DNA of 64,000 nt, taken from an uncultured Bacilli bacterium (GTDB taxonomy: Bacteria > Bacillota_I > Bacilli_A > RF39 > UBA660). Position numbers and translations under genes: made by a program. Positions 5,880 to 62,929 of this stretch are shown here, in pieces (within the stretch, counting starts at the first letter, position 1; every line of letters begins with the position of its first letter). The stretch lies in contig CAKOIS010000001.1 of assembly GCA_934087065.1 (NCBI GenBank), positions 46,388 to 110,387 of the forward strand. The letters run 5' to 3'. The notes beneath the pieces were generated by a model. It made no database searches. It was given only the letters and a program-made list of their open reading frames with translations, and had not been told where the DNA came from.

Positions 5880-5880
5880 C

Positions 5881-5907
5881 TGTGAATAACTTAAAACTTA
5901 TTAACAA
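5881..5907 (+). repeat. 27-nt intergenic motif, copy 1 (TGTGAATAACTTAAAACTTATTAACAA)
   Basis: Differs from the copy at 6485..6511 at 1 of 27 nt. Its first 9 nt are a one-mismatch complement of the DnaA box TTATCCACA. Confidence 0.7.
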
Positions 5908-5930
5908 CTAGCTAAAGTTTGACAGCAAAA

Positions 5931-5969
5931 ACGAGCAATCTCCTATATTTACTGGAATTGCTCGTTTTT
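5931..5969 (+). terminator. Rho-independent terminator of whiA
   Basis: ACGAGCAAT - 17 nt loop - ATTGCTCGT, followed by TTTT. Confidence 0.7.
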
Positions 5970-6122
5970 ATAATGTTGTGATTTTTTCACTATCACACTG
6001 TTAAAAAGTATTGTTTTATCCACCTAATTCAGTCGCTTTTCTAACTAATACTCAAATATTTACACAAAATTCCAACTATTTTTGCCCATTTTTACACATT
6101 TTTCTAAAAAAATATAAAACTC

Positions 6123-6151
6123 TTGCCCATTTTAGTTAAATATTATATAAT
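6123..6151 (+). promoter_or_regulatory. Sigma-A-like promoter for a putative small antisense RNA
   Basis: TTGCCC (6123..6128), 17-nt spacer, TATAAT (6146..6151). Confidence 0.4.
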
Positions 6152-6157
6152 GTAAAT

Positions 6158-6240
6158 ATAGGAAGTAATCAATAAATTGAATGTCTACCTATATTTGTTA
6201 TAGTGACATTGCGCTAAGCGATGTCATTTCTTTATTTCTA
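6158..6240 (+). ncRNA. Putative ~80-nt small RNA, convergent with and overlapping the 3' end of the minus-strand small ORF
   Basis: It starts after the promoter at 6123..6151 and ends at a 9-bp hairpin (6204..6226) followed by a T-rich tract. There is no convincing RBS or ORF. The ends are predicted only. Confidence 0.3.
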
Positions 6241-6322
6241 TCACTAATAATAGCAATAAAAACAAAGCAATATTCACTAGAATCAACACGCATATTCTAT
6301 ACGATCTCTTCTTCATGGACAT
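6224..6322 (-). CDS. 32-aa hydrophobic peptide (type I toxin-like / small membrane protein): MSMKKRSYRICVLILVNIALFLLLLLVIEIKK
   Basis: GGGAGG at 6332..6327, ATG at 6322 (alternative ATG at 6316), TGA at 6226..6224. It has its own consensus promoter upstream and a single TM helix with charged ends. It falls below the length cutoff of the ORF track. Confidence 0.45.
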   Translation of the reverse strand: MSMKKRSYRICVLILVNIALFLLLLLVIEIKK

Positions 6323-6406
6323 TGAACCTCCCTTCCTTTTCAACCAAGTTCCCCTGATTTACTTTGAAATTTGGTAGACACCCAGCACTTCCTGCTCCAT
6401 ACTAAC

Positions 6407-6435
6407 ATTATAACGTAATTAGCAAGGTAAATCAA
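6407..6435 (-). promoter_or_regulatory. Consensus-like sigma-A promoter driving the small minus-strand ORF
   Basis: On the minus strand: TTGATT (6435..6430), 17-nt spacer, TATAAT (6412..6407). Confidence 0.5.
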
Positions 6436-6484
6436 TACTAAAAACAAATAAATTTTCGCTACAATTTTCAAAATCCGCAAAAAT

Positions 6485-6511
6485 TGTGGATAACTTAAAA
6501 CTTATTAACAA
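6485..6511 (+). repeat. 27-nt intergenic motif, copy 2 (TGTGGATAACTTAAAACTTATTAACAA)
   Basis: It starts with the exact complement of the DnaA box TTATCCACA and lies 16 nt upstream of the -35 of the giant repeat-protein gene. Confidence 0.7.
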
Positions 6512-6526
6512 ATTTATGAAAAATAA

Positions 6527-6555
6527 TTGATTTAAAACGTTATTTATGGTATGAT
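6527..6555 (+). promoter_or_regulatory. Extended -10 promoter of the first giant repeat-protein gene
   Basis: TTGATT, 17 nt, TGgTATGAT. The ATG at 6558 lies too close to the -10 to be used, which supports the ATG at 6585 as the start. Confidence 0.55.
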
Positions 6556-6584
6556 TTATGATAGAAAGTAGGGTGCAAAACTTT

Positions 6585-8804
6585 ATGAATGAAGAAGAAA
6601 AGAAAATAATAGAAGAAGAAGGTCTTTATTTCGTAGAGCCAGATAAGAAAGAAAAAAGAAAAAAAATACTAATAATTGTATTTGTATTTACTCTTTTTAT
6701 CGCGGCTACAGTAAGTACAACATACTCTGTAATAAACTTTATAAGTAATTACAAAATGAGACTAAATATAGACACAGATGGTGACGGCTTACCTGATTTA
6801 AACATAGACACAGACGGTGATGGCAAGTGTGACGTTAACTGCGACACAAATGGTGATGGAGTACCAGATATTGACATTGGTTACAAAAACATACAAAAAC
6901 CTTTCTTTAACATAGACACAGACGGTGATGGAAAACCAGACAAAAACTTAACAAATGTAAAAGACGAAAATGGAATGTGTATTAAAAACTGTGACACAAA
7001 TAACGATGGATATCCTGATACTAACATAGATTTTGACGATGACGGAATATGTGATTTAAACTGTGATACAGACAAAGATGGTAAATGTGATATTAACTGT
7101 GACATCAATAACGACGGCAAGTGTGATTTAAATTGTGACACTGATAAAGATGGAAAACCTGACACTAACATTGACGAAGACAAAGATGGAATTTGTGATA
7201 AAGCTTGTACAGGAAAAGAAAATGACTCATGCAAAATCAATTGTGATATAGACGGCGACGGCAAATGTGACAGAAACTGTGATACAAATAATGACGGCGT
7301 ATGTGATAAGAACTGCGATGTTAACGGCGATGGAGTATGTGACTATAACTGCGACACAGATAACGACGGCAAATGTAATAAAAATTGTGACACAAACGGC
7401 GATGGAATATGTGATAAATTCTGTGGGAACAAAGGAAGTGATGTTTGCCTTATTAACTGCGATACAGACAAAGATGGCATTTGCGACAAAAATTGCGATG
7501 TAAACGGAGACGGTAAATGCGACATAAATTGTGACACTAACAATGATGGAAAATGTGACAAAAACTGTGATACCGATAATGACGGCATTTGTGACAAGAA
7601 TTGCGATGGAAAAGAAAACGACTCATGTAAAATAAATTGTGACACAAATGGCGATGGAAAGTGTGATATCAACTGTGACACTGATGGTGACGGTAGATGC
7701 GATAAGAATTGTGACGTTAACGGCGACGGCAAATGTGACTATAACTGTACAGAGAATAATGATGTGTGCGTTAAAAATTGTGACACAAATAATGACGGAA
7801 AGTGTGACTTAAACTGCGATACAAATAATGATGGACAATGCGATAAGAACTGCGATACTGATAACGATGGAATTTGTGATAAATTCTGTGAAGGAAAAGA
7901 AAACGACTCATGTAAGCTAAACTGTGATACAAATGGTGATGGCAAATGCGACAGAAACTGCGACACAAATAACGATGGCAAATGCGATAAAAATTGTGAT
8001 GCCAACGGAGATGGAAAGTGTGATTACAATTGTGACTCAGACAGTGATAAATGTAAAAGAAATTGTGATACAGATGGAGACGGGAAATGTGAATTAAACT
8101 GTGATACCAACAATGATGGTGTATGCGACAAGAACTGTGACACTGATGGAGATGGTGTATGCGACAAAAATTGTGATGGAAAAGAAAACGACTCATGTAA
8201 ACTAAATTGTGACACTGATAACGATGGCAAATGCGATAGAAATTGTGATACAAATAACGATGGCGTATGTGACTATAACTGCGATACAAATGGTGACGGA
8301 AAGTGTGATAGGAACTGCGACATAGACAAAGACGGAGTATGTGACAAAAACTGTGACACTGATGGCGATGGCATTTGTGACAAAAACTGCGGAGCGCCTA
8401 TAGATATTGGAAAAGACGAAGAACACACAATAACATTTAAAGACTTAACAAATATGCAGAACATAAATATCTATCCAGGTTGGAGGAGTGCTAAATCTTT
8501 TGAAATAACAAACTCAAGTACAGTAGACTTAGTATACACAATAAAATTCACAAATGTAGAAAATACATTCACTACAAAAAACAACCTTAACTATGGTCTA
8601 ATAAGAGATGGAGAAGTACTAATAGATATAGACAAAGCAAAAGCACCTTACCAAGATGGAGATATGCTAAAAAGTGTAGTAATTAAACCTGGTGAAACAC
8701 ATACTTACCTATTTAAATTAATGTTTAAAGACACAAACGAAAACCAAGATACAGAACAAGGTAAGAAATTCACAACAAAAATTCAAATTGAAAACGTTCA
8801 TTAG
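6585..8804 (+). CDS. Membrane-anchored giant surface protein: acidic cytoplasmic head, one TM helix, about 44 Cys-rich DxDxDG (thrombospondin type-3-like) Ca-binding units, C-terminal TasA/camelysin-like module
   Basis: The start at 6585 (MNEEEKKIIEEEGLYF) matches the paralogue start MDEKEKRKIIEEEKLYF. TM helix ILIIVFVFTLFIAATVSTTYSVI. The 12-aa repeat is NCDTNNDGKCDK. The C-terminal motifs are YPGWRSAKSFEITN and NQDTEQGKKFTTKIQIE. Confidence 0.85.
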   Translation: MNEEEKKIIEEEGLYFVEPDKKEKRKKILIIVFVFTLFIAATVSTTYSVINFISNYKMRLNIDTDGDGLPDLNIDTDGDGKCDVNCDTNGDGVPDIDIGYKNIQKPFFNIDTDGDGKPDKNLTNVKDENGMCIKNCDTNNDGYPDTNIDFDDDGICDLNCDTDKDGKCDINCDINNDGKCDLNCDTDKDGKPDTNIDEDKDGICDKACTGKENDSCKINCDIDGDGKCDRNCDTNNDGVCDKNCDVNGDGVCDYNCDTDNDGKCNKNCDTNGDGICDKFCGNKGSDVCLINCDTDKDGICDKNCDVNGDGKCDINCDTNNDGKCDKNCDTDNDGICDKNCDGKENDSCKINCDTNGDGKCDINCDTDGDGRCDKNCDVNGDGKCDYNCTENNDVCVKNCDTNNDGKCDLNCDTNNDGQCDKNCDTDNDGICDKFCEGKENDSCKLNCDTNGDGKCDRNCDTNNDGKCDKNCDANGDGKCDYNCDSDSDKCKRNCDTDGDGKCELNCDTNNDGVCDKNCDTDGDGVCDKNCDGKENDSCKLNCDTDNDGKCDRNCDTNNDGVCDYNCDTNGDGKCDRNCDIDKDGVCDKNCDTDGDGICDKNCGAPIDIGKDEEHTITFKDLTNMQNINIYPGWRSAKSFEITNSSTVDLVYTIKFTNVENTFTTKNNLNYGLIRDGEVLIDIDKAKAPYQDGDMLKSVVIKPGETHTYLFKLMFKDTNENQDTEQGKKFTTKIQIENVH
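6765..8390 (+). repeat. In-frame 36-bp tandem repeat array (12-codon units) with a higher-order period of about 5-6 units
   Basis: The unit NCDT[ND][NG]DG[KIV]CD[KIRLY] repeats almost without interruption, punctuated by GKENDSCK[IL] variant units. Confidence 0.9.
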
Positions 8805-8863
8805 GACGTTTTTTTGTTTTAATAAAAATGTCAATACAAAAATAATGTTTGATTTACAGCGAC

Positions 8864-8892
8864 TTGACACACCATGCTTTTTGTGTTATAAT
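8864..8892 (+). promoter_or_regulatory. Perfect consensus sigma-A promoter for the 165-aa orphan gene
   Basis: TTGACA (8864..8869), 17-nt spacer ending in TGt, TATAAT (8887..8892). Confidence 0.65.
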
Positions 8893-8945
8893 CAAATTAT
8901 GAAAAAATTCAGCAGTATAATTTCGCTGAAAGAAAGGAGAAAATA

Positions 8946-9443
8946 ATGACAAAAATAGAACTATTTTCTATACCAATATATTTAATAAATGAAGAGCGTT
9001 ATTTAAAAACATTGACAGATAGAATGAATAATTATGTATGCAAATTTTCTGACGATAGAAAAGAAGAAGTAAAATCGGTTTGGAAAAAATACAATTACAT
9101 TAATAAGCCATGGAAATATAATCAAATAATAGGTTATGTTGAAATTGTATATAGAGATAATTCTATATACTTTGATATCTATAAAGTTTTTAAAAAGAGA
9201 GTAAGAGTAGCAAGTAATAGGAAAAGTTATATTTCGTATATGCCAACCAGTGGTTTTCACTTTAGCAACTTGAAAAATATGACAAACGAAGATATAAAGG
9301 TAGAAATAAACGAGTGGTTAAAAAATATTGAAAAGACATTTTGCAAAAATAAAGAAATATTAGATAAAAAGATGTTTGATGTTCAAATAGAGTACATCGA
9401 CTTAAAGTCATTAATAAATGACGCAAAAGAAAATGTACACTAA
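8946..9443 (+). CDS. Hypothetical cytoplasmic protein (165 aa, Lys/Tyr-rich), no family recognised
   Basis: AAGGAG RBS 7 nt upstream, its own consensus promoter and terminator, and no TM or signal sequence. It lies between the two giant paralogues. Confidence 0.6.
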   Translation: MTKIELFSIPIYLINEERYLKTLTDRMNNYVCKFSDDRKEEVKSVWKKYNYINKPWKYNQIIGYVEIVYRDNSIYFDIYKVFKKRVRVASNRKSYISYMPTSGFHFSNLKNMTNEDIKVEINEWLKNIEKTFCKNKEILDKKMFDVQIEYIDLKSLINDAKENVH

Positions 9444-9458
9444 GTGCATTTTCTTTTA
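9431..9458 (+). terminator. Weak rho-independent terminator
   Basis: ATGTAC - ACTAA - GTGCAT (one G-U pair), followed by TTTTCTTTTATT. Confidence 0.45.
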
Positions 9459-9520
9459 TTATATCTAGAGTTTTTTAAAAAAATATGGTAATATTATAAA
9501 TAGAATAAGAGGAGGATATT

Positions 9521-11191
9521 ATGGACGAAAAAGAAAAAAGAAAAATAATAGAAGAAGAAAAATTATATTTTGAACAAGAGGAACCTGTTAAGAAAAGAAA
9601 GTCAAAGACTGTTTTAATAGTTTTAGTGTTTATATTATTTATTGGTGTAACCTGTGTATCTTCATATATAGTTATGAATTATATACTACTTAAATCAAGA
9701 AATCTAAACGTTGACACTGATGGAGATGGATGGCCTGATTTAAATATAGACACAGATGGTGATAAAATTTGTAACGTAAACTGTGATAACAATAAAGATA
9801 ACAAGCCTGATTATAACATAAGCTATAAAAATATGATGGCTGCCTACTTTAATTTAGATACAGATAAAGATGGCAGACCTGATAAAAACATGATTAACCA
9901 AAAAGATGGAAATGGTATATGTATATTAAATTGTGATGTAGATAACGATAACAGACCAGACACTAATCTAGATTTTGATGGAGACGGGACAGCAGAACTA
10001 AATATAGACTTAAATAATGATGGTAAATGTGATATCAACTGTGATTATGTAGGAAACAAATATCCAACAATTAACCTAGATACAAACGAAGACAACAAGG
10101 CAGACCTAAACATAGATACAGACAATGACCAAAAACCAAACATAAACATTAATTATGGTACTAACTATAACGAAGCAATATTTAATATAGATACAGATGG
10201 CGATGGCATAGCAGATAAAAATCTTGTAAATCAAAAAGACAGTACAGGTAAATGTATATTAAACTGTGATACAAATAACGATGGATGGCCCGAAATCAAC
10301 ATAGATATAAATGGAGATGGCGTAGCAGACCTAAACATAGATACAACAGGAGACAACAAAGCAGACTTAAATATAGATTTAACTGGAAATAAAATATGTG
10401 ACTTAAACTGTGATACAAACAATGATGGTATAGCAGACACAAACATAGACACAGATAATGATGGAATAGCAAATATAAACATTGATATCAATAACGATGG
10501 CATAGCAGAAATAAATGTTGACACAACAGGAGACAAGAAAGCAGATACAAACCTATTAAATCAAACAGACAGTACAGGCAAATGCATATTAAACTGTGAC
10601 ACAAATAACGATGGAAGGCCAGATATGAATGTCGACTTAGATAACGATGGAATGCCAGACTTAAATATAAGTTTAAACAATAGTAATAGCATAAATGCGA
10701 ATGCAGACTCAGATAAAGATGGCGTAGCAGATAACTATCTAATAGATGCAAAAATATTAACTAAAGAAACAAAAGAAGAAAACATAGATTTAAATACAAC
10801 AAATGAATATAAATTCCCATATTTAGGAATGAATGACTTTGATAGCAGCATAGTAAAACCCGGTTGGACAAAAACAAAGAAATTTAACATAACAAATACA
10901 GGTGCTTCAACAATTACTTATTCAGTTTATTGGGAAGACATACTAAACGAATATCACTATGAAGTAAGACCATACTATACTTTATATAAAAATGGTACAG
11001 AAGTAGTAAGTGGAAAAGCAAATTATATTATAAACAACGGTGAAACACTTGTAGAAAACATAGAACTAAGTTCTAACCAAACTGATAAGTACGAATTAGT
11101 ATTTACATATGCACCAAATGTAGACCAAAAATTAATAGACAACAATGTAAACAGACTATATTATTCAGCATTAAAAATTGTTAAAAAATAG
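9521..11191 (+). CDS. Membrane-anchored surface protein, paralogue of 6585..8804 with Cys-poor DxDxDG repeats and a C-terminal TasA/camelysin-like module
   Basis: AGGAGG RBS. It shares the head (EEEKLYF), TM helix, first repeat block (NVDTDGDGWPDLNIDTDGD) and C-terminal motif KPGWTKTKKFNITN with the paralogue. Confidence 0.85.
   Translation: MDEKEKRKIIEEEKLYFEQEEPVKKRKSKTVLIVLVFILFIGVTCVSSYIVMNYILLKSRNLNVDTDGDGWPDLNIDTDGDKICNVNCDNNKDNKPDYNISYKNMMAAYFNLDTDKDGRPDKNMINQKDGNGICILNCDVDNDNRPDTNLDFDGDGTAELNIDLNNDGKCDINCDYVGNKYPTINLDTNEDNKADLNIDTDNDQKPNININYGTNYNEAIFNIDTDGDGIADKNLVNQKDSTGKCILNCDTNNDGWPEINIDINGDGVADLNIDTTGDNKADLNIDLTGNKICDLNCDTNNDGIADTNIDTDNDGIANINIDINNDGIAEINVDTTGDKKADTNLLNQTDSTGKCILNCDTNNDGRPDMNVDLDNDGMPDLNISLNNSNSINANADSDKDGVADNYLIDAKILTKETKEENIDLNTTNEYKFPYLGMNDFDSSIVKPGWTKTKKFNITNTGASTITYSVYWEDILNEYHYEVRPYYTLYKNGTEVVSGKANYIINNGETLVENIELSSNQTDKYELVFTYAPNVDQKLIDNNVNRLYYSALKIVKK
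9707..10740 (+). repeat. In-frame degenerate 36-bp repeat array (N[ILV]DxxxDGx[AP]Dx units interspersed with CxxxC-containing units)
   Basis: Examples are NIDTDGDGIADK, NIDINGDGVADL, NIDTDNDGIANI and NIDINNDGIAEI. A spacer unit of the form NQKD(G/S)xGxCILNCD occurs three times. Confidence 0.8.
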
Positions 11192-11318: not shown

Positions 11319-11879
11319 ATGGGAGAAAACAAAGGACAAACTATTTTCTTATCAGTAATTGGAATCGCAACTTTATTAGTAGCAATTATAGGTGCAACAT
11401 TTGCATACTTCACAACTACTATGGGAAATAAAAATGCCGTTACAGGTGGTGTTACTACTGCAACTATTTCAGCTGTAACATTAGCTGGAACTGAGTTTGA
11501 CGCAAAAAATGTAATGCCAGGTTGGACAAGTGATGAACAAACTTTCACTATTTCTGCTGCAACAATCACTGGTGACGCAACTGCTGATTATGTTTGTAAC
11601 ATTATTAAAACTGGTACAGGAGTATCAACTGATTTCCAATATGCAGTAACAACTGGTACAGCTGGTACTACATATGGTGAGTGGGCAGCTGTTCCAGCAA
11701 CTTCAACTGAAGTTGCTAAGGGAACACTTTCAGCATCAAGCAAAACTCACACTTACAAAGCTAAGTTCCAATTAGTTGAAACTAATGCAAACCAAAATGA
11801 ACAACAAGGTCAAAGCTATGGTGCTTCTATTACATGCGCATTAACTAAAGTTAATGGAAAAGCTGTAGAAGGTGAATAG
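11319..11879 (+). CDS. TasA/camelysin-family secreted protein with SipW-type signal peptide (putative major fibre subunit)
   Basis: The leader MGENKGQTIFLSVIGIATLLVAIIGATFAYFTTT matches the ..GGT[FL]AYF[ST]D class. It carries MPGWTSDEQTFTIS and NQNEQQGQSYGASITCA motifs, a Thr/Ala/Gly-rich mature part, and its own promoter and terminator. Confidence 0.8.
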   Translation: MGENKGQTIFLSVIGIATLLVAIIGATFAYFTTTMGNKNAVTGGVTTATISAVTLAGTEFDAKNVMPGWTSDEQTFTISAATITGDATADYVCNIIKTGTGVSTDFQYAVTTGTAGTTYGEWAAVPATSTEVAKGTLSASSKTHTYKAKFQLVETNANQNEQQGQSYGASITCALTKVNGKAVEGE

Positions 11880-11989: not shown

Positions 11990-12013
11990 ATTATATAGAA
12001 TACGGTGATAGAT

Positions 12014-12586
12014 ATGAAAGAGAAAGATATTAAAACATATATTTATTCAATAATAGTAGTTTTATCATTTATTTTGGTAGCTATAGGCGCATCTTTAGCA
12101 ATAGTTTATTATAAAGTAAATGGTAACAATGAAAACGGAAACGTTGATGTTAAAACAGCATATGTAACTGCGGCATTTCATGAAATACAAGGCTTTAACG
12201 ACGAAAATGTACTTCCTGGTTGGAGTAATGAAATGAAATTTGAAATAATTAACACATCAACAGAACAAAACGCTGTTGGTAGATATTCACTAGTTTGGGA
12301 TATCACAAAAAATGAAATAGACAGTAAAGATTTTATTTATACATTAACTGGAGAAAGCACATTAGATGGTCAAACAATTGAAGACAACACTCCAACAAAT
12401 AAATTAGTAACAGTAACTGGGCAACAAATAGTTCCTACTATAAGTTTTACTTTAGGTAGCGGAATAATTAACACAGGAGTTAAACATAGCTATGTGCTTA
12501 AGGTTTCATTCCTTGAAAGTGGAGAAAATCAAAATGAACTTCAAGGCAAAACTTTTAACTCAACAATAGTTGCACAAGGAAAGTAG
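12014..12586 (+). CDS. TasA/camelysin-like protein with an uncleaved-looking N-terminal TM anchor (putative minor/anchoring subunit)
   Basis: The ATG at 12014 is preferred; the ORF track starts at GTG 12005. TM helix IYSIIVVLSFILVAIGASLAIVYY without the AYF motif. It carries LPGWSNEMKFEIIN and NQNELQGKTFNSTIVAQ motifs. Confidence 0.7.
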   Translation: MKEKDIKTYIYSIIVVLSFILVAIGASLAIVYYKVNGNNENGNVDVKTAYVTAAFHEIQGFNDENVLPGWSNEMKFEIINTSTEQNAVGRYSLVWDITKNEIDSKDFIYTLTGESTLDGQTIEDNTPTNKLVTVTGQQIVPTISFTLGSGIINTGVKHSYVLKVSFLESGENQNELQGKTFNSTIVAQGK

Positions 12587-12594
12587 GTGTTAGA

Positions 12595-13188
12595 ATGAAG
12601 GAAAAAAATCAAGAAATATTATTATCAGTTGTAAGCATTCTAACAATTATAGTAGCTGTAATTGGTGTTACATTTTCATACTTTACTACTAAAATGACTG
12701 GTTCAGGAACAAGTGGAACAGTAACAACTGCAAAAGTTGGAAACATTACATTTGATGGAGGTAATGATTTAACAAATGCAAACGATATAGAGCCAGGCGA
12801 TACATTTGATAAGACATTCAGTATAAGTGTTCCAGCAACAGATGTATCAAACACTGTATATATAAGAATGGATTTCACAAACGAATTTCAAGACTTACAG
12901 TGGAGTATAAAAGGAACAGGTGCTAATACAAGTGTTATAACTGGTACAATACCAACAACATCTACAAAAACAACAGTAACACTTGTAACTAACAAAATAA
13001 CTAAAAACTCAGTAGCTCAAACATTTAATTATACATTAACAATAACACTACCTAATTTAGATAAAAATCAAGATTATGACCAAGGAAAAACATTCAGTGG
13101 TACATTATATGCAGACTTAGGCGATGGCGTTGATATGATATATTATAACAACACACATCCAAGTGGAACAACTACAAAACCACAGTAG
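12595..13188 (+). CDS. TasA/camelysin-family secreted protein with SipW-type signal peptide (second subunit)
   Basis: Leader MKEKNQEILLSVVSILTIIVAVIGVTFSYFTTK, plus EPGDTFDKTFSISV and NQDYDQGKTFSGTLYAD motifs. Confidence 0.8.
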   Translation: MKEKNQEILLSVVSILTIIVAVIGVTFSYFTTKMTGSGTSGTVTTAKVGNITFDGGNDLTNANDIEPGDTFDKTFSISVPATDVSNTVYIRMDFTNEFQDLQWSIKGTGANTSVITGTIPTTSTKTTVTLVTNKITKNSVAQTFNYTLTITLPNLDKNQDYDQGKTFSGTLYADLGDGVDMIYYNNTHPSGTTTKPQ

Positions 13189-13205
13189 CAGAAATGCTAC
13201 TTTTT
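13185..13205 (+). terminator. Rho-independent terminator
   Basis: GTAGCA-GAAA-TGCTAC followed by TTTTT. The stop codon lies in the stem. Confidence 0.7.
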
Positions 13206-46507: not shown

Positions 46508-46613
46508 ATATAAGCAACCGCAAATAGTAGTTGCGAAAATGATCTTTGAAAACTAAGTAAAATGAATGAGTTTTGTTAGGATAAAATAATCAATTCCAAA
46601 ATCGAATAGATTT

Positions 46614-48184
<1,571 letters not shown>

Positions 48185-48456
48185 TATGGAGTAAATACTA
48201 GTAGAAAAAGAACCGTATATATCATTCGGGGTTAGCCGTAAGGAAATATGATATGTGTAAAACTAACTAAACACATTTTACTTAGCTTTGAGAGATTATT
48301 TCTCTCAGTATTGTAATTTTTATACAATAATTGTTCTTTGAAAACTTGATAATGTGATGTTCATATTGCTCAAACGAGCAGCAATATGAAAACTTAATTT
48401 TTTGGTAATTTATTGAAAGATAAATATTAAGAAATCTCATCAAATTAGGATATAGT

Positions 48457-51377
<2,921 letters not shown>

Positions 51378-51440
51378 ATTTTAATTTGATATTTTATCAC
51401 ATTATCTTGTTTTGAGAGAACGATTATGGTATAATAATTT

Positions 51441-51546
51441 TGTAGGTGACGATAGCAAAGTGGACACACCTGTTCCCATCTCGAACACAGAAGTTAAGCA
51501 CTTTAACGGCGAAGATAGTGTAAGCGAAAATAGCAAGTTGCCTACT
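51441..51546 (+). rRNA. rrf: 5S ribosomal RNA (short, about 106 nt)
   Basis: Helix I GTAGGTGAC/GTTGCCTAC, and CCTGTTCCCATCTCGAACACAGAAGTTAAGC. The helix IV/V region is visibly shorter than in Bacillus 5S. Confidence 0.8.
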
Positions 51547-51615
51547 TTTTTTTGTGCAAAAATTTTAATAAACTATTGATTTTTATATAAAGATAATGTA
51601 TAATACAATTTACAT

Positions 51616-51692
51616 GGCGTTATTGGTGAAGTGGTTAACACGCCAGATTGTGGCTCTGGTATGCGTGGGTTCGATTCCCACATAGCGCCCCA
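51616..51692 (+). tRNA. tRNA-His (anticodon GTG) with encoded G-1 and CCA
   Basis: Hand-folded. Acceptor GCGTTAT/ATAGCGC plus G-1:C73. Anticodon stem CCAGA/TCTGG with loop TTGTGGC. T arm GTGGG-TTCGATT-CCCAC. 3' CCA. Confidence 0.9.
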
Positions 51693-57476: not shown

Positions 57477-59231
57477 ATGAAAAGATATTTAAAAAATATA
57501 ATAATTATAGTCTTAATAGGCTTAACTTGTACAGGAATATACTTTACAATGGATTATATAAAAGATAATCAAGTAACTTCAAATGACAAAACTATGGAAG
57601 GCATGACACCACCCGATATGACTAACAATGAAATGCAAAAACCAAGTGGCGATAGTTCTTCACTTACAGAAAAACCAGACGGAAGTACTGATAATATAGG
57701 CGAGCCACCATCCAAACCTGATGAAAATAACTCTTCTATGCCAAACTTCCAAAACTCCTCTAATACTTTGGAAACAAAATACATATTAATATTTGGCGTA
57801 GAAAGCCTAGTCCTAGCAGTCCTAATAAGCTACCTAATAATGTCTAATCTAAACAAAAAGACAATTAAAGAAACTTTTGTAACAAGTGACAAAATAATCA
57901 TATACGTATTACTTACAATAGTCTTAACTGGTGCTTTCACATTTACTGACAAGCTTGTAACAGAAAACTACTTTCTAAATACAGGCGAAACCAACAAAGA
58001 AAAGCCAAACGATAACCAAGGCTCAACAATAAATACAAACACAACATACAAAGCTGCTACTGAAATAACTAGCGACACTACAATAAAAGATAAAGATTAC
58101 ACTTCAACTGAAAGTGACGAAAACGCTCTTCTTATAAATGGAAAAGTATCTGTAACAGCAAGTGATATAGAAGTAACTAAAACAGGAGACTCTGATGGCG
58201 GCGACGCTACTTCATTTTATGGCACAAACTCAGCTATCTTAGCAAAAGGAGGAAGTACTTTAACAATAAAAAATGCTACTATCACAACAAATGCAACTGG
58301 TGCTAACGGAGTATTCAGTTATGGTGGTTCAGCTACTACAAACAATACAAACTCAGATGGAACAACAGTAAATATTTCTGACTCAACAATAACCACAACA
58401 AAAGATAACTCAGGCGGAATAATGACTACAGGTGGCGGAACAACCAGTGCTACAAACCTAACTATCAAAACATCAGGCACATCTTCTGCTGCAATAAGAA
58501 CTGACCGTGGAGGAGGTACTGTAACAGTTAACAAAGGTACCTACACAACAAATGGAAAAGGTTCTCCTACCGTTTACTCAACTGCTGATGTGACTGTCAA
58601 AAATGCAACTCTTACATCTACAAAAAGTGAAGGCATTGTAATTGAAGGAAAAAATAGTGTAACTCTAGAAAACGTTAAACTTACAAGCACAAATAACACT
58701 CTAAACGGAAAAAGTACAACATACAAAGGTATCTTCTTATATCAGTCAATGAGTGGAGACGCACAAGATGGAACAAGTTCGTTTACTAGTAAAAACAGCG
58801 AAATAATAACTAACAAAGGAGACACATTCTATGTAACAAACACATCAAGCGTAATAAACTTAACAAATAACACAATAACAAATAAAGACACAACAGGTGC
58901 TTTCCTAAGAATTCAAAAAGACTCGTGGGGATCAACAGGCGCAAATGGTGGGTATGTTACATTAAATATGACAAACCAAACAGCATCAGGAGATATTATT
59001 GTAGACGAATTATCAACACTAAAAATGAACCTTTCAGAAAAAAGTAGCTTTACTGGTTCCATTAACACTGACAACACAGCAAAAAGTATAACTCTTAAAC
59101 TAGACAAAACTTCAACACTAAAACTAACTGCTGATACGTACGTTACAAGCCTAGACAATATAGATGAGACAAACTCAAACATAGACTTCAATGGCTACAA
59201 ATTATACGTTAACAACAAAAGCATAAACTAA
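57477..59231 (+). CDS. Membrane-anchored surface protein with Thr-rich right-handed beta-helix-like repeats (Cthe_2159-type carbohydrate-binding domain family)
   Basis: ATG at 57477 preceded by AAAGGAGA. N-terminal TM, a Pro/Ser-rich linker, two further hydrophobic segments, then repeated (V/I)T(V/I)xN(A/G)T(I/L)T blocks and GGxTxSAxNLTI-like turns. Confidence 0.7.
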   Translation: MKRYLKNIIIIVLIGLTCTGIYFTMDYIKDNQVTSNDKTMEGMTPPDMTNNEMQKPSGDSSSLTEKPDGSTDNIGEPPSKPDENNSSMPNFQNSSNTLETKYILIFGVESLVLAVLISYLIMSNLNKKTIKETFVTSDKIIIYVLLTIVLTGAFTFTDKLVTENYFLNTGETNKEKPNDNQGSTINTNTTYKAATEITSDTTIKDKDYTSTESDENALLINGKVSVTASDIEVTKTGDSDGGDATSFYGTNSAILAKGGSTLTIKNATITTNATGANGVFSYGGSATTNNTNSDGTTVNISDSTITTTKDNSGGIMTTGGGTTSATNLTIKTSGTSSAAIRTDRGGGTVTVNKGTYTTNGKGSPTVYSTADVTVKNATLTSTKSEGIVIEGKNSVTLENVKLTSTNNTLNGKSTTYKGIFLYQSMSGDAQDGTSSFTSKNSEIITNKGDTFYVTNTSSVINLTNNTITNKDTTGAFLRIQKDSWGSTGANGGYVTLNMTNQTASGDIIVDELSTLKMNLSEKSSFTGSINTDNTAKSITLKLDKTSTLKLTADTYVTSLDNIDETNSNIDFNGYKLYVNNKSIN

Positions 59232-59327: not shown

Positions 59328-61973
59328 ATGAATAATTATTACCAAATGTCTGAAAAAGAAACATTAAAAAAACTAAAAACAACAAAAGAAGGATTAACAA
59401 CAAAAGAAGCAGTAAAAAGAATAAAACTCTACGGCAAAAACTCACTTCCAAAATCAAAACAAAAGTCATACATTCAAGTATTTTTGTCAGAATTTAAAAA
59501 CCCAATATGTTATATCTTACTAATAACAATGATTTTATCTTTTACAATAGGCGAATACATAGATGCAATTTTTATACTCTTTGTAGTACTAATAGATGCC
59601 TTACTTGGTTCAGTTCAAGAATACAAAAGTTCTAAAAGTGCTGAAGCATTAAAAAAAATAGTAAAAGTAGAAGCAAAAGTACTAAGAGACAACAAAGAAG
59701 TAATTATAGAAAGTTCTGACTTAACAATTGGCGACATAGTCTATTTAGAAAGTGGAAACATAGTCCCAGCAGACTTAAGACTCCTTGTTGTAAATAATCT
59801 AGAAGTAGATGAGTCCATATTAACAGGTGAGTCTATCCCACGTGAAAAACACACTAAAAAAATAACTAAAGAAGTAACTATAAACGACAGAACCAATATG
59901 TGTTACCTAGGCACAAACATAACAAGAGGCCGCGCGATAGGTGTAGTTACATCTATTTCAAAAGACACAGAAATAGGTAGCATTGCAAAAGAAGTTTTAA
60001 ATAGCTCTATAACTCTAACACCACTTCAAATAAGAATGAACAAATTCACAAAAGACCTAAGCCTAATCGCAGCCATTCTTGCTGTAATCGTAACATTCAT
60101 TTTATACATAAAAGGCTACACTGCAAAAGAAATATTTTTCCTAGTTATTGCACTAAGCGTATCAGCTATTCCTGAGGGCTTGCCTGTAGTAATAACACTC
60201 GCTTTATCTATAAGTAGTGACAAAATGGCTAAAAAGAATGTAATAGTAAAAAAACTAAATGCAGTTGAAGCACTAGGCAGCACTACACTAATTGCAAGTG
60301 ACAAAACAGGCACTCTTACACTAAACGAGCAAACGGTTAAAAAAATAGTTTTACCAAACAACGACACATATATAGTTACAGGTGAAGGCTATAACGGTAT
60401 CGGAAAAATTGAAGGTAAAAATGTAAATAAAGTAAAAAATATCATAAAAGAAGGACTATATAACAACGAAGCAACACTTTCACTTCAAAACGATGAATGG
60501 GTCTCATTCGGTGACTCAATGGACATAGCTCTTTTATCTTTAGGCTACAAATATGGTTTAGAAAACATAGATTTAAGAACAAACGTAATTGATAGAATTC
60601 CATACGAGTCCGATAACGGCTATTCAGTTGCATTCTATAAAGAACAAGATGATATGTATATAACAATAAAAGGTGACTTAGAAAAAGTACTTAAGTTTAC
60701 AAAAAAAACAACTAACAAAGAAAAGATCAGAAAACAAAATGAACTTTTAGCAAGTGATGGTTACAGGGTATTAGCTTTCGCAAGTGCAAAAATAACTTCT
60801 TTTAAACAAAAAGATATTTATAAAGAAAGTGATATTCCGCCCCTTAAATTTAGTGGCTTAGTTGCATTCCTAGACCCAATTAGACCTGATGCTAAAGAGG
60901 CAGTAGAAAAATGTAAAAGTGCTGGAATAAAAGTAGTCATGATAACTGGAGATCACCCACAAACAGCTTACAAAATTGCCCGCAACCTAGGAATTTGCTC
61001 AAACGAAACAGAACTATCTACTGGAGAAGAGTTATCTAAATTTCTAAAAAAAGACCAAAGTACTTTTGACGAATACATAAAAACTAAAAAAGTATTTAGC
61101 CGCGTTACACCAATGCAAAAACTAGAAATAGTCTCTTCATACAAAAGATTAGGTGAATTTGTAACAGTAACCGGGGATGGTGTAAACGATAGCCCCGCCC
61201 TAAAAGAAGCAAATACAGGTGTTGCCATGGGAAGTGGAACAGACATAGCAAAAGAGACTTCTTCACTTATCATTACAGACGATAAATTTTCCTCAATAGT
61301 AAAAGGTGTAGAAGAAGGACGTGGTGCATACGACAACATTAGAAAAGTAACATATATGCTTTTATCTTGTGGTGTCAGTGAAGTCGTGTTTTATTTGTTC
61401 TCAATTCTATTAGACTACTCTGTACCACTAACTGCAATTCAACTCCTCTGGCTAAACCTAGTAACAGATGGAATACAAGATGTCACTCTTGCATTTGAAC
61501 AAACTGACAAAGACGTACTAAAAAGAAAACCAAGAAGCACAAAAGAAAACTTATTTGATAGATTACTAAAAAACGAAATACTTCTAATGGGACTAACAAT
61601 GGGAATAATTGTCTTCGGTGTTTGGGTCTACTTAATAGATGTACTAAAACTCCCAACAGTAGTCGCAAGAAGTTACATTCTATTTCTTATGGTATTCATG
61701 CAAAACATACACTGCTTTAACTGTAGAAGTGAAACAAAAAGCATATTTAGTATTCCACTAAAAAACAACAAAAAATTAGTTTTATCTATCTTAATAGTAT
61801 TATTTATACAATTTGTAGTAGTAGAAAATAGTGTATTATCGCATCTTTTAGAAACAGAAACAATTCCACTATTACATGTACTATGCTTGTTCTTAGCTTC
61901 TCTTCCAATTATAATCGTTTCAGAAATAATGAAATACTTTGAAAGAGACAAAATAAGGAGGGGAAAATCTTGA
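59328..61973 (+). CDS. P-type (P2) Ca2+-transporting ATPase
   Basis: TGES, DKTGTLT, TGDHPQTA and GDGVNDSPALK, plus 10 TM helices with PEGLPVV in M4 (the Ca-site signature of SERCA/PMCA-like pumps). Confidence 0.88.
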   Translation: MNNYYQMSEKETLKKLKTTKEGLTTKEAVKRIKLYGKNSLPKSKQKSYIQVFLSEFKNPICYILLITMILSFTIGEYIDAIFILFVVLIDALLGSVQEYKSSKSAEALKKIVKVEAKVLRDNKEVIIESSDLTIGDIVYLESGNIVPADLRLLVVNNLEVDESILTGESIPREKHTKKITKEVTINDRTNMCYLGTNITRGRAIGVVTSISKDTEIGSIAKEVLNSSITLTPLQIRMNKFTKDLSLIAAILAVIVTFILYIKGYTAKEIFFLVIALSVSAIPEGLPVVITLALSISSDKMAKKNVIVKKLNAVEALGSTTLIASDKTGTLTLNEQTVKKIVLPNNDTYIVTGEGYNGIGKIEGKNVNKVKNIIKEGLYNNEATLSLQNDEWVSFGDSMDIALLSLGYKYGLENIDLRTNVIDRIPYESDNGYSVAFYKEQDDMYITIKGDLEKVLKFTKKTTNKEKIRKQNELLASDGYRVLAFASAKITSFKQKDIYKESDIPPLKFSGLVAFLDPIRPDAKEAVEKCKSAGIKVVMITGDHPQTAYKIARNLGICSNETELSTGEELSKFLKKDQSTFDEYIKTKKVFSRVTPMQKLEIVSSYKRLGEFVTVTGDGVNDSPALKEANTGVAMGSGTDIAKETSSLIITDDKFSSIVKGVEEGRGAYDNIRKVTYMLLSCGVSEVVFYLFSILLDYSVPLTAIQLLWLNLVTDGIQDVTLAFEQTDKDVLKRKPRSTKENLFDRLLKNEILLMGLTMGIIVFGVWVYLIDVLKLPTVVARSYILFLMVFMQNIHCFNCRSETKSIFSIPLKNNKKLVLSILIVLFIQFVVVENSVLSHLLETETIPLLHVLCLFLASLPIIIVSEIMKYFERDKIRRGKS

Positions 61974-62929
61974 CTTTAATTCTAACAGCAATAATTCTAT
62001 TTGTAATCGGACTAGTTTCACTTATAAGATTTTCAGACATATTTGTAAGTGCAGCTTCTAGTCTTAGTATTCACTTAAAAGTTCCTAAAATGTTAATTGC
62101 TTTAACAGTCGCTGCCTTTGGTACCTGTGCTCCAGAACTAGCAATATCATTTAACTCAATAAGTGGTGGTAACCCTGACATGACTCTTGCAAATGTAATC
62201 GGTTCATGCATAGTAAACATACTATTAATTGTAGGTATAGCTGCAATCGTTAGACCCATCAAAGTAAAAGAAAGAACAATAAAAAAAGAACTTCCTTTAT
62301 TAGTAATCATAACTTCAGCTTTCTTTGTTTTATTAACAGACTCACTATTTAAAAAAGGTGCATCTAATACTCTATCTCGTGCTGATGGTATAATGCTTCT
62401 TTGCTGGTTTATCCTATTCATGTTCTACATAATCGGATTAGTAAGAAAAAACAAAAACGAAGAAACACTTATTCCTGAATATAGTCTAAAAAAATCTATA
62501 ATTTTAATAATACTCACACTCATTGGAATAATAGTGTCTTCAGACATAGTTGTAGATAACGCTGTAATGCTTGCAGAAGTTTTAGGAATAAGCCAAAAAA
62601 TAATATCAATGACAGCCATAGTAATAGGAACCTCTCTTCCTGAACTAACAATGACAGTAAACGCGGCTAGAAAAGACGAATTTGATATGGCAGTAGGTAA
62701 CATAATAGGGACTAACATATTTAACATATGTATAGTTTTAGGTCTTCCTATTAGCATATATGGAACAGTTTCTTCAAACGCATTCACAATAGTGGACTCA
62801 AGCATTGTCTTACTTGCATCTATCATATTTTATATATTTGGAAAAAGTGGTAAAGTCTTATCAAGAAGAGAAGGAATATTAATGTTTTTAGTATTTTTAA
62901 TATATTATGTATACTTATTTATAAGTTAA
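61970..62929 (+). CDS. Ca2+/Na+ antiporter (CaCA family, YrbG-like)
   Basis: Two alpha-repeats, GTCAPELAIS and GTSLPELTM. The TTG start overlaps the ATPase stop (CTTGA). Confidence 0.85.
   Translation: MTLILTAIILFVIGLVSLIRFSDIFVSAASSLSIHLKVPKMLIALTVAAFGTCAPELAISFNSISGGNPDMTLANVIGSCIVNILLIVGIAAIVRPIKVKERTIKKELPLLVIITSAFFVLLTDSLFKKGASNTLSRADGIMLLCWFILFMFYIIGLVRKNKNEETLIPEYSLKKSIILIILTLIGIIVSSDIVVDNAVMLAEVLGISQKIISMTAIVIGTSLPELTMTVNAARKDEFDMAVGNIIGTNIFNICIVLGLPISIYGTVSSNAFTIVDSSIVLLASIIFYIFGKSGKVLSRREGILMFLVFLIYYVYLFIS

Follow-up and report, generated by a model that had tools for sequence, protein, structure and literature searches.

A cysteine-rich array of 12-residue calcium-loop repeats in a predicted surface stalk protein of uncultured gut Bacillota, with a predicted TasA-like C-terminal domain

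In the Sdr/Clf proteins the anchor and the functional domain are separated by a long acidic repetitive region; their SD repeats and SdrD B repeats are calcium-stiffened or repeat stalks, the SD repeats have no cysteine, and LPXTG stands at the C-terminus. The disulfides of thrombospondin type 3 are long-range and connect adjacent repeats across some 20 residues or more, and the Tenebrio molitor antifreeze protein is a disulfide-braced beta-helix with 12 residues per turn, cysteines at i and i+6, and no calcium motif. A short calcium-binding motif, Dx[DN]xDG, defines a class described by Rigden and colleagues that takes in the EF-hand, dockerin, the FG-GAP 'calcium blade' and others (PMC3123361). 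Fibres are built in Bacillus from TasA with TapA and SipW, where TasA fibres form by donor-strand exchange and TapA works through strand complementation (PMC9674648, PMC10151520); archaeal bundling pili (PMC9245690) are set beside them for comparison.

The locus compared with these systems here lies in a 64-kb stretch of DNA (64,000 nucleotides, referred to below as the window) from an uncultured Bacilli bacterium, probably a gut anaerobe. An ORF of 748 amino acids (6558..8804, + strand) encloses an in-frame array of 12-residue units, and we put at roughly 55% the probability that this array serves as a stalk, stiffened by calcium and probably stapled by disulfides, on which a TasA-like fibre is presented or anchored. 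Within a large uncharacterised family from uncultured gut Bacillota the protein is an extreme variant; for this family a first search returned 1229 matches at E<=1e-5 and all source names seen are 'hypothetical'. No entry for the exact 748-aa protein was found in the assembly index.

The stalk gene is defined by the ORF listing, by an ortholog of equal length in MAG UBA11492 and by the gene call in a related strain (locus L007). Translation may in fact begin at the second ATG (6585), as in the L007 gene call, since an AGGG-like ribosome-binding site precedes that codon by about 10 nt. The first 36 residues (6558..6665, +) form a putative cytoplasmic segment with the motif IIEEEGLYF, common to a neighbouring paralog and 5 of 120 listed homologs, and with KKEKRKK at its end, placing positive charge directly before a single hydrophobic helix at aa 37-59 (6666..6734, +; best 19-aa Kyte-Doolittle window, mean 2.45). 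This helix reads as a signal anchor or a SipW-type signal peptide, and the K/R-rich N-terminus followed by one helix backs the original proposal that the repeats are extracytoplasmic. To the eye, the helix is similar to the signal regions of three small proteins encoded downstream. No riboswitch or small RNA was found by Rfam in the 680 bp upstream of the gene, and a consensus scan places a terminator-like hairpin, a pattern match only, over its stop codon (8790..8813, +).

The repeat array itself spans 6765..8390 (+; 542 aa), where the ORF and Tandem Repeats Finder both bear out the in-frame 36-bp repeats of the initial annotation; the tandem-repeat analysis proposed there returned arrays of period 36 and 72 over 6960..8391, plus a longer period of 285 bp. 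There are about 43 units, 12 residues long except for two of 11. An early hand count of about 36 canonical and 8 degenerate units has been revised: 28 fit the consensus N-C-D-x-[ND]-x-D-G-x-C-[DEN]-x, and cysteine occupies positions 2 and 10 in 33. Units of the form x-C-x-G-K-E-N-D-S-C-K-[IL] number four (aa 216, 348, 443 and 538) rather than five, and FCGNKGSDVCLI, NCTENNDVCVK and NCDSDSDKCKR occur once each, as first reported. The segment has 138 aspartates, a net charge of -86, and 78 cysteines, not about 90 as estimated, every one of them within 39 CxxxC pairs. At 14.4%, its cysteine content is about 15-fold above the 0.95% of the 27 other genes in the window, in keeping with the suggestion that such richness is unusual for an exported protein of the Bacillota. 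The exclusion of cysteine from exported proteins by Firmicutes is documented for aerobic species (PMC2823432). The 38 Dx[DN]xDG motifs, 35 of which have Asp or Glu at +9, are consistent with the estimate of about 40 potential calcium sites and place the array in the linear-motif class of that name.

The array had been likened to thrombospondin type 3. What stands of that identification is the Dx[DN]xDG calcium loop in its generic form; profile scores and PDB searches by sequence and by fold lend no support to anything closer. Pfam TSP_3 (PF02412), with a cut-off of 25 bits, scores 8.3 on a stretch of just 11 residues and has no match at E<=0.1 over the whole protein; TSP3_bac (PF18884) reaches 11.6-12.6 bits, also against 25, over profile positions 1-10 of 22; and the EF-hand (EF-hand_5), FG-GAP, Dockerin_1 and Excalibur models match the same 8-11 array residues equally weakly. 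A phmmer search of the PDB with the array returned no match at E<=1, thrombospondin included. AlphaFold2 gave eight units a pLDDT of 60.6, with nothing but single beta-bridges every 12 residues, and Foldseek found no PDB match at E<=10 for this repeat model, which is of low confidence and too weak for a test of TSP3 or beta-helix structure.

The likeness to thrombospondin type 3 (PF02412; 1UX6) and bacterial TSP3 (PF18884) lies in the tandem acidic Dx[DN]xDGxxD loops, the little regular secondary structure, and cysteines that in the array, too, would stabilise a chain otherwise held by calcium; units without cysteine, D-T-D-G-D-G-x-P-D, fit TSP3_bac profile positions 1-10. However, the array period is fixed at 12 residues, the next loop beginning at once, loop position 12 is Ile or Cys rather than Asp/Glu, and the cysteines lie in local CxxxC pairs, unlike the long-range inter-repeat disulfides of thrombospondin. 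The structural settings of the EF-hand, the propeller blade and dockerin do not suit a bare 12-residue tandem, and the structural context of such a Dx[DN]xDG tandem is previously undescribed. With the Tenebrio antifreeze protein the array shares, by analogy only, a 12-residue period and two cysteines per unit in place of a hydrophobic core, but its cysteines are at i and i+4 and it has a calcium motif; no similarity was detected by Foldseek with the low-confidence model, and no relationship is claimed. The resemblance to Sdr/Clf is one of layout, a long acidic repetitive region between anchor and functional domain that is thought to span the wall. Matches to the NCBIfam models for ClfA, ClfB, SdrC and SdrD are compositional and fall on the SD-repeat part of the profiles, with 84-100 bits where the cut-offs are 999-2500. 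The proteins are also anchored from opposite ends, by a membrane helix at the N-terminus here and by LPXTG at the C-terminus in Sdr/Clf.

Beyond the array, the C-terminal 137 residues (8391..8801, +) were modelled by AlphaFold2 as a beta-sandwich (mean pLDDT 86), predicted from the model to have a TasA-like fold. Its best PDB match in Foldseek, and the sole one with E<=0.001, is the TasA fibre 8AUR (E 8.7e-4), at a modest TM of 0.50 with many generic beta-sandwiches close behind; carbohydrate-binding modules and Ig-like domains rank directly below TasA, and other donor-strand pilins lower down. By sequence, the domain gives a sub-threshold match to the TasA/camelysin family Peptidase_M73 (PF12389) over profile positions 55-165 at E 0.01, with 16.1 bits against a cut-off of 22.5. 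A phmmer search of the PDB with the domain found no match, and its profile matched there only short Ig-like stretches of Hydin. The domain family is large, with 2693 representative clusters in the profile search, and six of ten small homologs sampled among the profile matches with E<=1e-23 pass the PF12389 threshold (22.7-35.6 bits).

The domain is also homologous to three small proteins encoded downstream, with hhalign probabilities of 96-98%. The stalk gene is followed by a paralog of the same architecture (9521..11191, +; 556 aa), with units that are mostly NIDxDGDGxPD/AD, few CxxxC pairs and a TasA-like C-terminal domain of its own. Next come small TasA-like protein 1 (11319..11879, +; 186 aa; hhalign 96.4%; Peptidase_M73 at E 0.006, below threshold), protein 2 (12005..12586, +; 193 aa; hhalign 98.4%, E 8.6e-15), which has a PGW motif, and protein 3 (12595..13188, +; 197 aa; hhalign 96.4%), where a consensus scan marks a terminator-like hairpin at the end of the gene (13184..13201). 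The signal regions of proteins 1 and 3 close with FAYFT and FSYFT, motifs recognised by eye only, and none of the three small proteins has an NCBIfam match for a SipW-cognate signal. Homologs of protein 3 were found in close relatives only; both source names shown are 'hypothetical protein', with no link to TasA by name.

This synteny is conserved in relatives of the species: at five loci (L001, L002, L004, L007 and L012), one or more stalk genes stand ahead of three or four genes for small subunits. The site between the stalk gene and its paralog receives unrelated insertions, and a 165-aa inserted ORF had no PADLOC match. Two other ideas raised by the neighbourhood and composition were set aside. 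A role in cell division was considered because ftsE-ftsX-M23 genes lie upstream here and in L005, and PBP/MraY/FtsW genes downstream in L006, but the context in L012 differs again. Radical-SAM thioether (ranthipeptide-like) modification was dropped: no radical-SAM-like enzyme was seen among the neighbour genes scanned or read, and the protein is large and exported.

The comparison with the Bacillus TasA system (PF12389; 8AUR) starts from the TasA-like beta-sandwich that the C-terminal domain has in common with the three small neighbours, and extends to the FAYFT/FSYFT-type signal ends and to a SipW-type peptidase beside a distant homolog. There, at locus L005, the homolog P0023 is immediately followed by an archaeal/SipW-type signal peptidase (TIGR02228, 89.5 bits against a cut-off of 51.85). 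A resemblance to TapA lies in the notion of an accessory protein with the subunit fold. The differences are several: TasA and TapA have neither a calcium-loop stalk nor a long N-terminal membrane anchor, the TasA-like domain here is C-terminal, after 540 residues of repeats, the direct PF12389 score is below threshold, and SipW was not found in the window. A tblastn search with the L005 peptidase matched nothing in the window or at the other loci except L005 itself, and a simple motif search of the window for a signal peptidase turned up only an unrelated P-type ATPase.

The protein could instead be a stand-alone calcium-dependent adhesin or wall spacer with no role in a fibre, its stalk projecting the beta-sandwich towards a carbohydrate or host ligand and the small neighbours being independent secreted paralogs. 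Arrays of NIDxDGDGxPD are likewise present in surface proteins of a clearly different kind, some of which (P0016, P0086 and P0092, for example) have a hydrophobic segment at the C-terminus. Among the Pfam matches of these proteins are PF09479, PF02368 and, with one protein going by the name 'MucBP domain-containing protein', PF06458, so that the repeat is a general-purpose stalk module. The standing of carbohydrate-binding modules and Ig-like domains in the Foldseek ranking, the stalk gene's own terminator-like hairpin and the entry of insertions between it and the paralog point the same way. We nevertheless judge this explanation unlikely, since the end domain is homologous to small proteins with SipW-like signals, the five-gene arrangement is conserved, and a SipW-type peptidase adjoins in one lineage.

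The initial annotation had the cysteines bracketing each unit in thrombospondin fashion, but they prove to covary over the junction between units, C10(i)-x3-C2(i+1). Every cysteine of the array sits in a C-D-x-N-C pair that spans a unit junction, where homologues have P-D-x-N-I. Among 928 junctions from 120 listed homologs, 196 are C/C and 732 are non-C/non-C (mostly P/I, A/I, P/L and P/V), with no case of C/non-C or non-C/C (Fisher p = 5e-207); in the same set there is no coupling of positions 2 and 10 inside one unit. Lone CxxxC pairs between P/I junctions are frequent among the homologs, so each pair must be self-sufficient. From the sequence, the pair is most likely a local disulfide; because an extended link would hold Cys i and i+4 too far apart for one, a turn is required.

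The same pairs might instead be metal or redox sites, either thiolates of Zn, Fe, Cu or Ni with nearby Asp or reversible thiol/disulfide switches, which would make the array a metal sink, a store or a redox sensor in an anoxic gut. The habitat is probably anoxic (related sequences come from gut metagenomes, one Hadza sample among them), neither thioredoxin-like CxxC ORFs nor a thiol-disulfide oxidoreductase were found in the window, and 39 evenly spaced dithiol sites stand on an acidic scaffold. Firmicutes usually avoid exported cysteine (PMC2823432), and so large an investment in it suggests that its chemistry matters. Yet two thiols are by themselves poorly suited to holding a metal, the majority of the family functions with few cysteines or none, and the more distant positional ortholog at L012 has only three CxxxC pairs. 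The pair also swaps cleanly, with no intermediates, for the non-ligand hydrophobic P/I, which is the signature of a packing contact rather than of a ligand set. Overall, a metal or redox function seems improbable.

The DNA of the array bears on how stable it is. Over the C-terminal two thirds, Tandem Repeats Finder detects a higher-order repeat of 285 bp (7488..8309, +; 2.9 copies, 75% match), equal to 95 aa or eight units and not the five to six first supposed; its order is one GKEND unit, three canonical units, one 11-mer and three canonical units, and the GKENDSCK units at aa 348, 443 and 538 are spaced accordingly by 95 aa. Length instability had also been expected. One event supports it: the L007 ortholog, known from one metagenome assembly, is shorter by precisely one higher-order repeat (aa 461-555; 7938..8222, +), as seen in protein and DNA alignments, the edges being ambiguous within a common stretch of about 15 nt, GATGGCAAATGCGA. 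Against it, the DNA identity of the units is only 64%, as diverged as random back-translation predicts, and two independent assemblies agree in length, the UBA11492 ortholog having 748 aa, all 78 cysteines and zero indels at 8% nucleotide difference. Third codon positions hold 144 of the 183 differences from UBA11492 and the dN/dS of the array is 0.042; the array is under purifying selection. That its present length or order is an artefact of assembly, as the initial annotation feared, whether through collapse, expansion or chimerism, is highly improbable, for although three short-read contigs of related strains break off inside the array and L007 gives the shorter version, the window has no sign of collapse, the frame is unbroken along the whole array, no exact repeat is longer than 27 bp, which with 64% unit identity falls far short of what would make a k-mer assembly collapse, and UBA11492 matches it without an indel.

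We return, then, to a calcium-rigidified stalk bearing a TasA-like fibre. The analysis shows the anatomy of the stalk protein, the covariation of its cysteines, purifying selection, the homology of the C-terminal domain and the synteny kept with the small subunits in relatives of the species; calcium binding, disulfide chemistry, rigidity and a fibre-anchoring role are what we infer from the sequence. With the N-terminus in the cytoplasm and the C-terminus outside, the array would form the stalk, outside the cell, of a surface protein anchored in the membrane, each 12-residue unit being one compressed calcium loop (D3-x-[DN]5-x-D7-G8-x-x-D11). A four-residue link would join successive loops, closed in most relatives by a Pro...Ile contact (P-D-x-N-I); here a Cys...Cys pair (C-D-x-N-C) would take the place of that contact, most likely as a local disulfide. 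Together, 38 calcium loops and 39 such staples would yield a stiff, protease-resistant and very acidic rod, holding the TasA/camelysin-like beta-sandwich off the membrane and through the wall. The C-terminal domain would then probably accept or nucleate the three small TasA-like subunits, as the base of a fibre in the manner of TapA. A more far-reaching proposal, which we regard as doubtful, is that the unit represents an undescribed fold, a rod with one calcium per unit and i to i+4 disulfides replacing Pro/Ile, serving as a wall-spanning base for a TasA-type fibre in wall-bearing 'Tenericutes-like' gut Bacillota. Bolder still, the 39 regularly spaced dithiols may be redox- or metal-active, the stalk sensing or buffering the extracellular redox or metal state.

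The perfect exchange of Cys/Cys for Pro/Ile amounts to a natural experiment on the bracing of calcium-loop repeats, and offers a simple rule for designing protein rods that are stiff and depend on calcium. The export of 78 cysteines by a member of a lineage in which avoidance is expected raises the question of how, and whether, such anaerobes oxidise their secreted proteins. The TasA-like domain on a membrane-anchored stalk suggests a route of fibre attachment different from that of Bacillus TapA, and the stalk protein gives a first handle on a large unannotated family of uncultured gut Bacillota.

The open reading frame listed at 6558..8804 (+; 748 aa), which encodes what we call the stalk protein, contains at residues 70-611 (6765..8390) an array that splits in frame into about 43 12-residue units, of which two are shortened to 11 residues. 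The array also includes two longer irregular stretches close to its N-terminal end. Tandem Repeats Finder reports arrays of period 36 and 72 throughout the segment, along with a higher-order repeat at 7488..8309 (285-bp period, 2.9 copies, 75% match). The initial annotation, made from the sequence alone, described this in-frame, Cys-rich 12-residue array correctly in substance, and only its counts need revision: there are 78 Cys instead of about 90, four GKENDSCK units instead of five, and a higher-order period of eight units (95 aa) instead of five to six. Cysteine makes up 14.4% of the array, compared with a mean of 0.95% in 27 other genes of the window; there are also 138 Asp, the net charge is -86, and 35 of the 38 Dx[DN]xDG motifs carry an acidic residue at +9.

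With the unit numbered N1-C2-D3-x-[DN]5-x-D7-G8-x-C10-D11-x12, a striking regularity emerges at the junctions between units. Whenever a unit is missing one Cys, the Cys that faces it in the adjacent unit is always missing too, and two junction types alternate, '...G-x-P-D-x-N-I-D...' and '...G-x-C-D-x-N-C-D...'. Counting every [DN]-G-x-X-[DEN]-x-N-X-D across the 120 top-ranking homologs gave 928 junctions, comprising 196 C/C, no C/non-C, no non-C/C, and 732 non-C/non-C, though a p-value for this pairing is not a true probability because repeats and homologs share kinship. The non-C/non-C junctions are most often P/I, followed by A/I, P/L and P/V, and positions 2 and 10 inside one unit have no comparable coupling. 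The lack of a single exception among 928 junctions is strong evidence that the two junction residues touch. These C/C pairs might be metal- or redox-active dithiols; the simplest reading is that a disulfide would take the place of a small hydrophobic contact. Lone CxxxC pairs between P/I junctions are common among the homologs, so a single pair suffices by itself.

The array had also been likened to thrombospondin type 3 repeats. Of that label the calcium loop of generic Dx[DN]xDG type stands, while family membership is not supported: the Pfam TSP_3 model has no match on the whole stalk protein, and short pieces of the array reach 8.3 bits with TSP_3 and 11.6-12.6 bits with TSP3_bac (cut-offs 25). 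The EF-hand, FG-GAP, dockerin and Excalibur models give equally weak matches on the same 8-11 residues, and a phmmer search of the array against all PDB sequences found nothing. The loop is known from a dozen or more structural contexts that are unrelated to one another (PMC3123361). Compared with bacterial TSP3, the non-Cys units (D-T-D-G-D-G-x-P-D) resemble a maximally compressed motif, each loop giving way directly to the next. An eight-unit AlphaFold2 model, for which 27 repeat blocks were aligned in register, was weak (pLDDT 60.6), with no helices and with single beta-bridges at unit positions 2 and 12; Foldseek found no match for this weak model in the PDB.

In the rest of the stalk protein, a charged N-terminus (aa 1-36, with KKEKRKK at its end) precedes one hydrophobic helix (aa 37-59), which places the array and everything C-terminal to it outside the cell. 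The last 137 residues form a seven-strand beta-sandwich in a confident model (pLDDT 86), for which the TasA fibre 8AUR (TM 0.50) is the top PDB match and alone reaches E<=0.001; other donor-strand pilins and many generic sandwiches follow. Matches of Peptidase_M73 (Pfam; camelysin/TasA) to this domain and to small protein 1 (see below) are sub-threshold only. A profile of the domain recovers 2693 representative clusters among 1.84 billion proteins, and 6 of 10 sampled small members of the family pass the PF12389 cut-off.

Downstream on the same strand lies a paralog of 556 aa (9521..11191, +) with the same architecture and mostly P/I and A/I junctions, followed by small proteins 1 (11319..11879, +), 2 (12005..12586, +) and 3 (12595..13188, +), all three of which align with the C-terminal domain profile in hhalign (probabilities 96-98%). 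In two of the three, FAYFT or FSYFT ends the signal region. No archaeal/SipW-type signal peptidase gene was found within the window; at locus L005 such a gene (TIGR02228, 89.5 bits; cut-off 51.85) comes directly after the distant homolog P0023. The gap between stalk gene and paralog (8805..9520) is a variable insertion spot when compared with related loci L001, L002, L003, L004 and L007, spanning 78 bp in three relatives versus 717 bp here, where it holds a 165-aa ORF (8946..9443; PADLOC found nothing), a perfect sigma-70-like promoter (8864..8892) and terminator-like hairpins on its flanks. Two other strains carry a CBASS defence system (SMODS, E2, 2TM effector) in this gap. The intergenic region upstream of the stalk gene is unusually long (5880..6557, about 680 bp); it contains a terminator-like hairpin (6202..6228), and Rfam gave no match.

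The model with the best support comprises four elements, and we infer its mechanism throughout. The array would form a rigid, acidic stalk, loaded with calcium and stapled at its unit junctions; the N-terminal helix would anchor this stalk in the membrane, and the stalk would hold the TasA-like domain out past the wall. On the analogy of TapA and TasA (PMC10151520, PMC9674648), the domain may serve as base or nucleator for a fibre composed of the three small subunits. With its N-terminus tethered, such a domain cannot donate an N-terminal strand, though it could accept one. The stalk protein could instead be a stand-alone adhesin, a proposal to be weighed against gene order: in five related loci, too, three or four genes for small subunits come after the stalk gene(s). 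Neither the calcium-loop motif nor the TasA-like domain is new in itself; in nothing we found was there a description of the loop in a bare 12-residue tandem, of a CxxxC staple with strict covariation, or of a membrane-anchored protein in which such a stalk is fused to a TasA-like domain.

Three short-read contigs stop within the array, and an assembly artefact might be suspected, yet the ortholog in the closest genome, the MAG 'Bacillota bacterium UBA11492', argues against this and for strong selection on every unit, having the same 748 codons, no indel and all 78 Cys at 91.9% DNA identity, with 144 of 183 differences at third codon positions and an array dN/dS of 0.042. Synonymous divergence from that ortholog is 0.64 in the array (6765..8390 versus L004 8375..10000) and 0.23-0.26 in the C-terminal domain, whiA and the M23 peptidase gene, with dN/dS about 0.04 in all four; possible causes are conversion within the array, an exchange involving a more distant strain, and local hypermutability. 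Array units have a mean DNA identity of 64.2%, versus 64.6 +/- 0.5% in random back-translations of the same protein with window codon usage, and the longest exact repeat is 27 bp (18-41 bp in simulations); by these two measures neither recent duplication nor recent homogenisation is apparent. The L007 strain lacks exactly aa 461-555 (285 bp, one higher-order repeat), with the crossover within a shared stretch of about 15 nt, and we read this as a probably real deletion allele because a k-mer assembler should not collapse 75%-identical copies. In L012, a more distant species, the positional ortholog (493 aa) has three CxxxC pairs only, and the Cys count of the stalk protein is the highest in the list of 120 homologs (next 51, 33 and 32), so the Cys-rich expansion is lineage-specific.

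The window (32% G+C) includes whiA, ftsEX with an M23 peptidase, clpP, glycolysis genes, a Spo0A-like regulator, ribosomal protein operons and an rRNA operon. The rRNA operon is complete (16S, 23S, 5S), with a tRNA after it (46613..51689), and its 16S could place the organism precisely. Depositors labelled small-subunit relatives 'Tenericutes bacterium' or 'Mycoplasmatota', and human gut metagenomes are among the samples. About 50 kb from the calcium-loop genes, a P-type cation ATPase with a calcium-pump-like domain set (59328..61973) adjoins a Na+/Ca2+ exchanger family protein (62090..62929). A 584-aa protein (57477..59231), which combines a hydrophobic segment at the N-terminus with a right-handed beta-helix domain (Pfam Beta_helix), is likely another surface protein.

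In one branch of the family (P0003, P0008, P0018, P0032, P0114 and others) the membrane helix is preceded by a conserved N-terminal domain, cytoplasmic and about 95 aa long (...YLPxxLKVxKxGxKLxF...; no Pfam match), which suggests signalling or partner binding inside the cell. At L006, the distant homolog P0003 (10001..11752) lies directly upstream of a PBP (transpeptidase with PASTA), mraY and ftsW, approximately the position of ftsL in many division/cell-wall clusters, maybe by coincidence. Long Cys-free NIDxDGDGxPD arrays are found in P0016, P0024, P0066, P0086, P0092 and P0117 as modules of quite different large surface proteins, with precomputed Pfam matches that include PF06458 (one is named 'MucBP domain-containing protein') and PF09479, and in some cases a hydrophobic segment at the C-terminal end. 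Because the arrays occur in such different surface proteins, the 12-residue repeat appears to be a mobile stalk module in these gut Bacillota.
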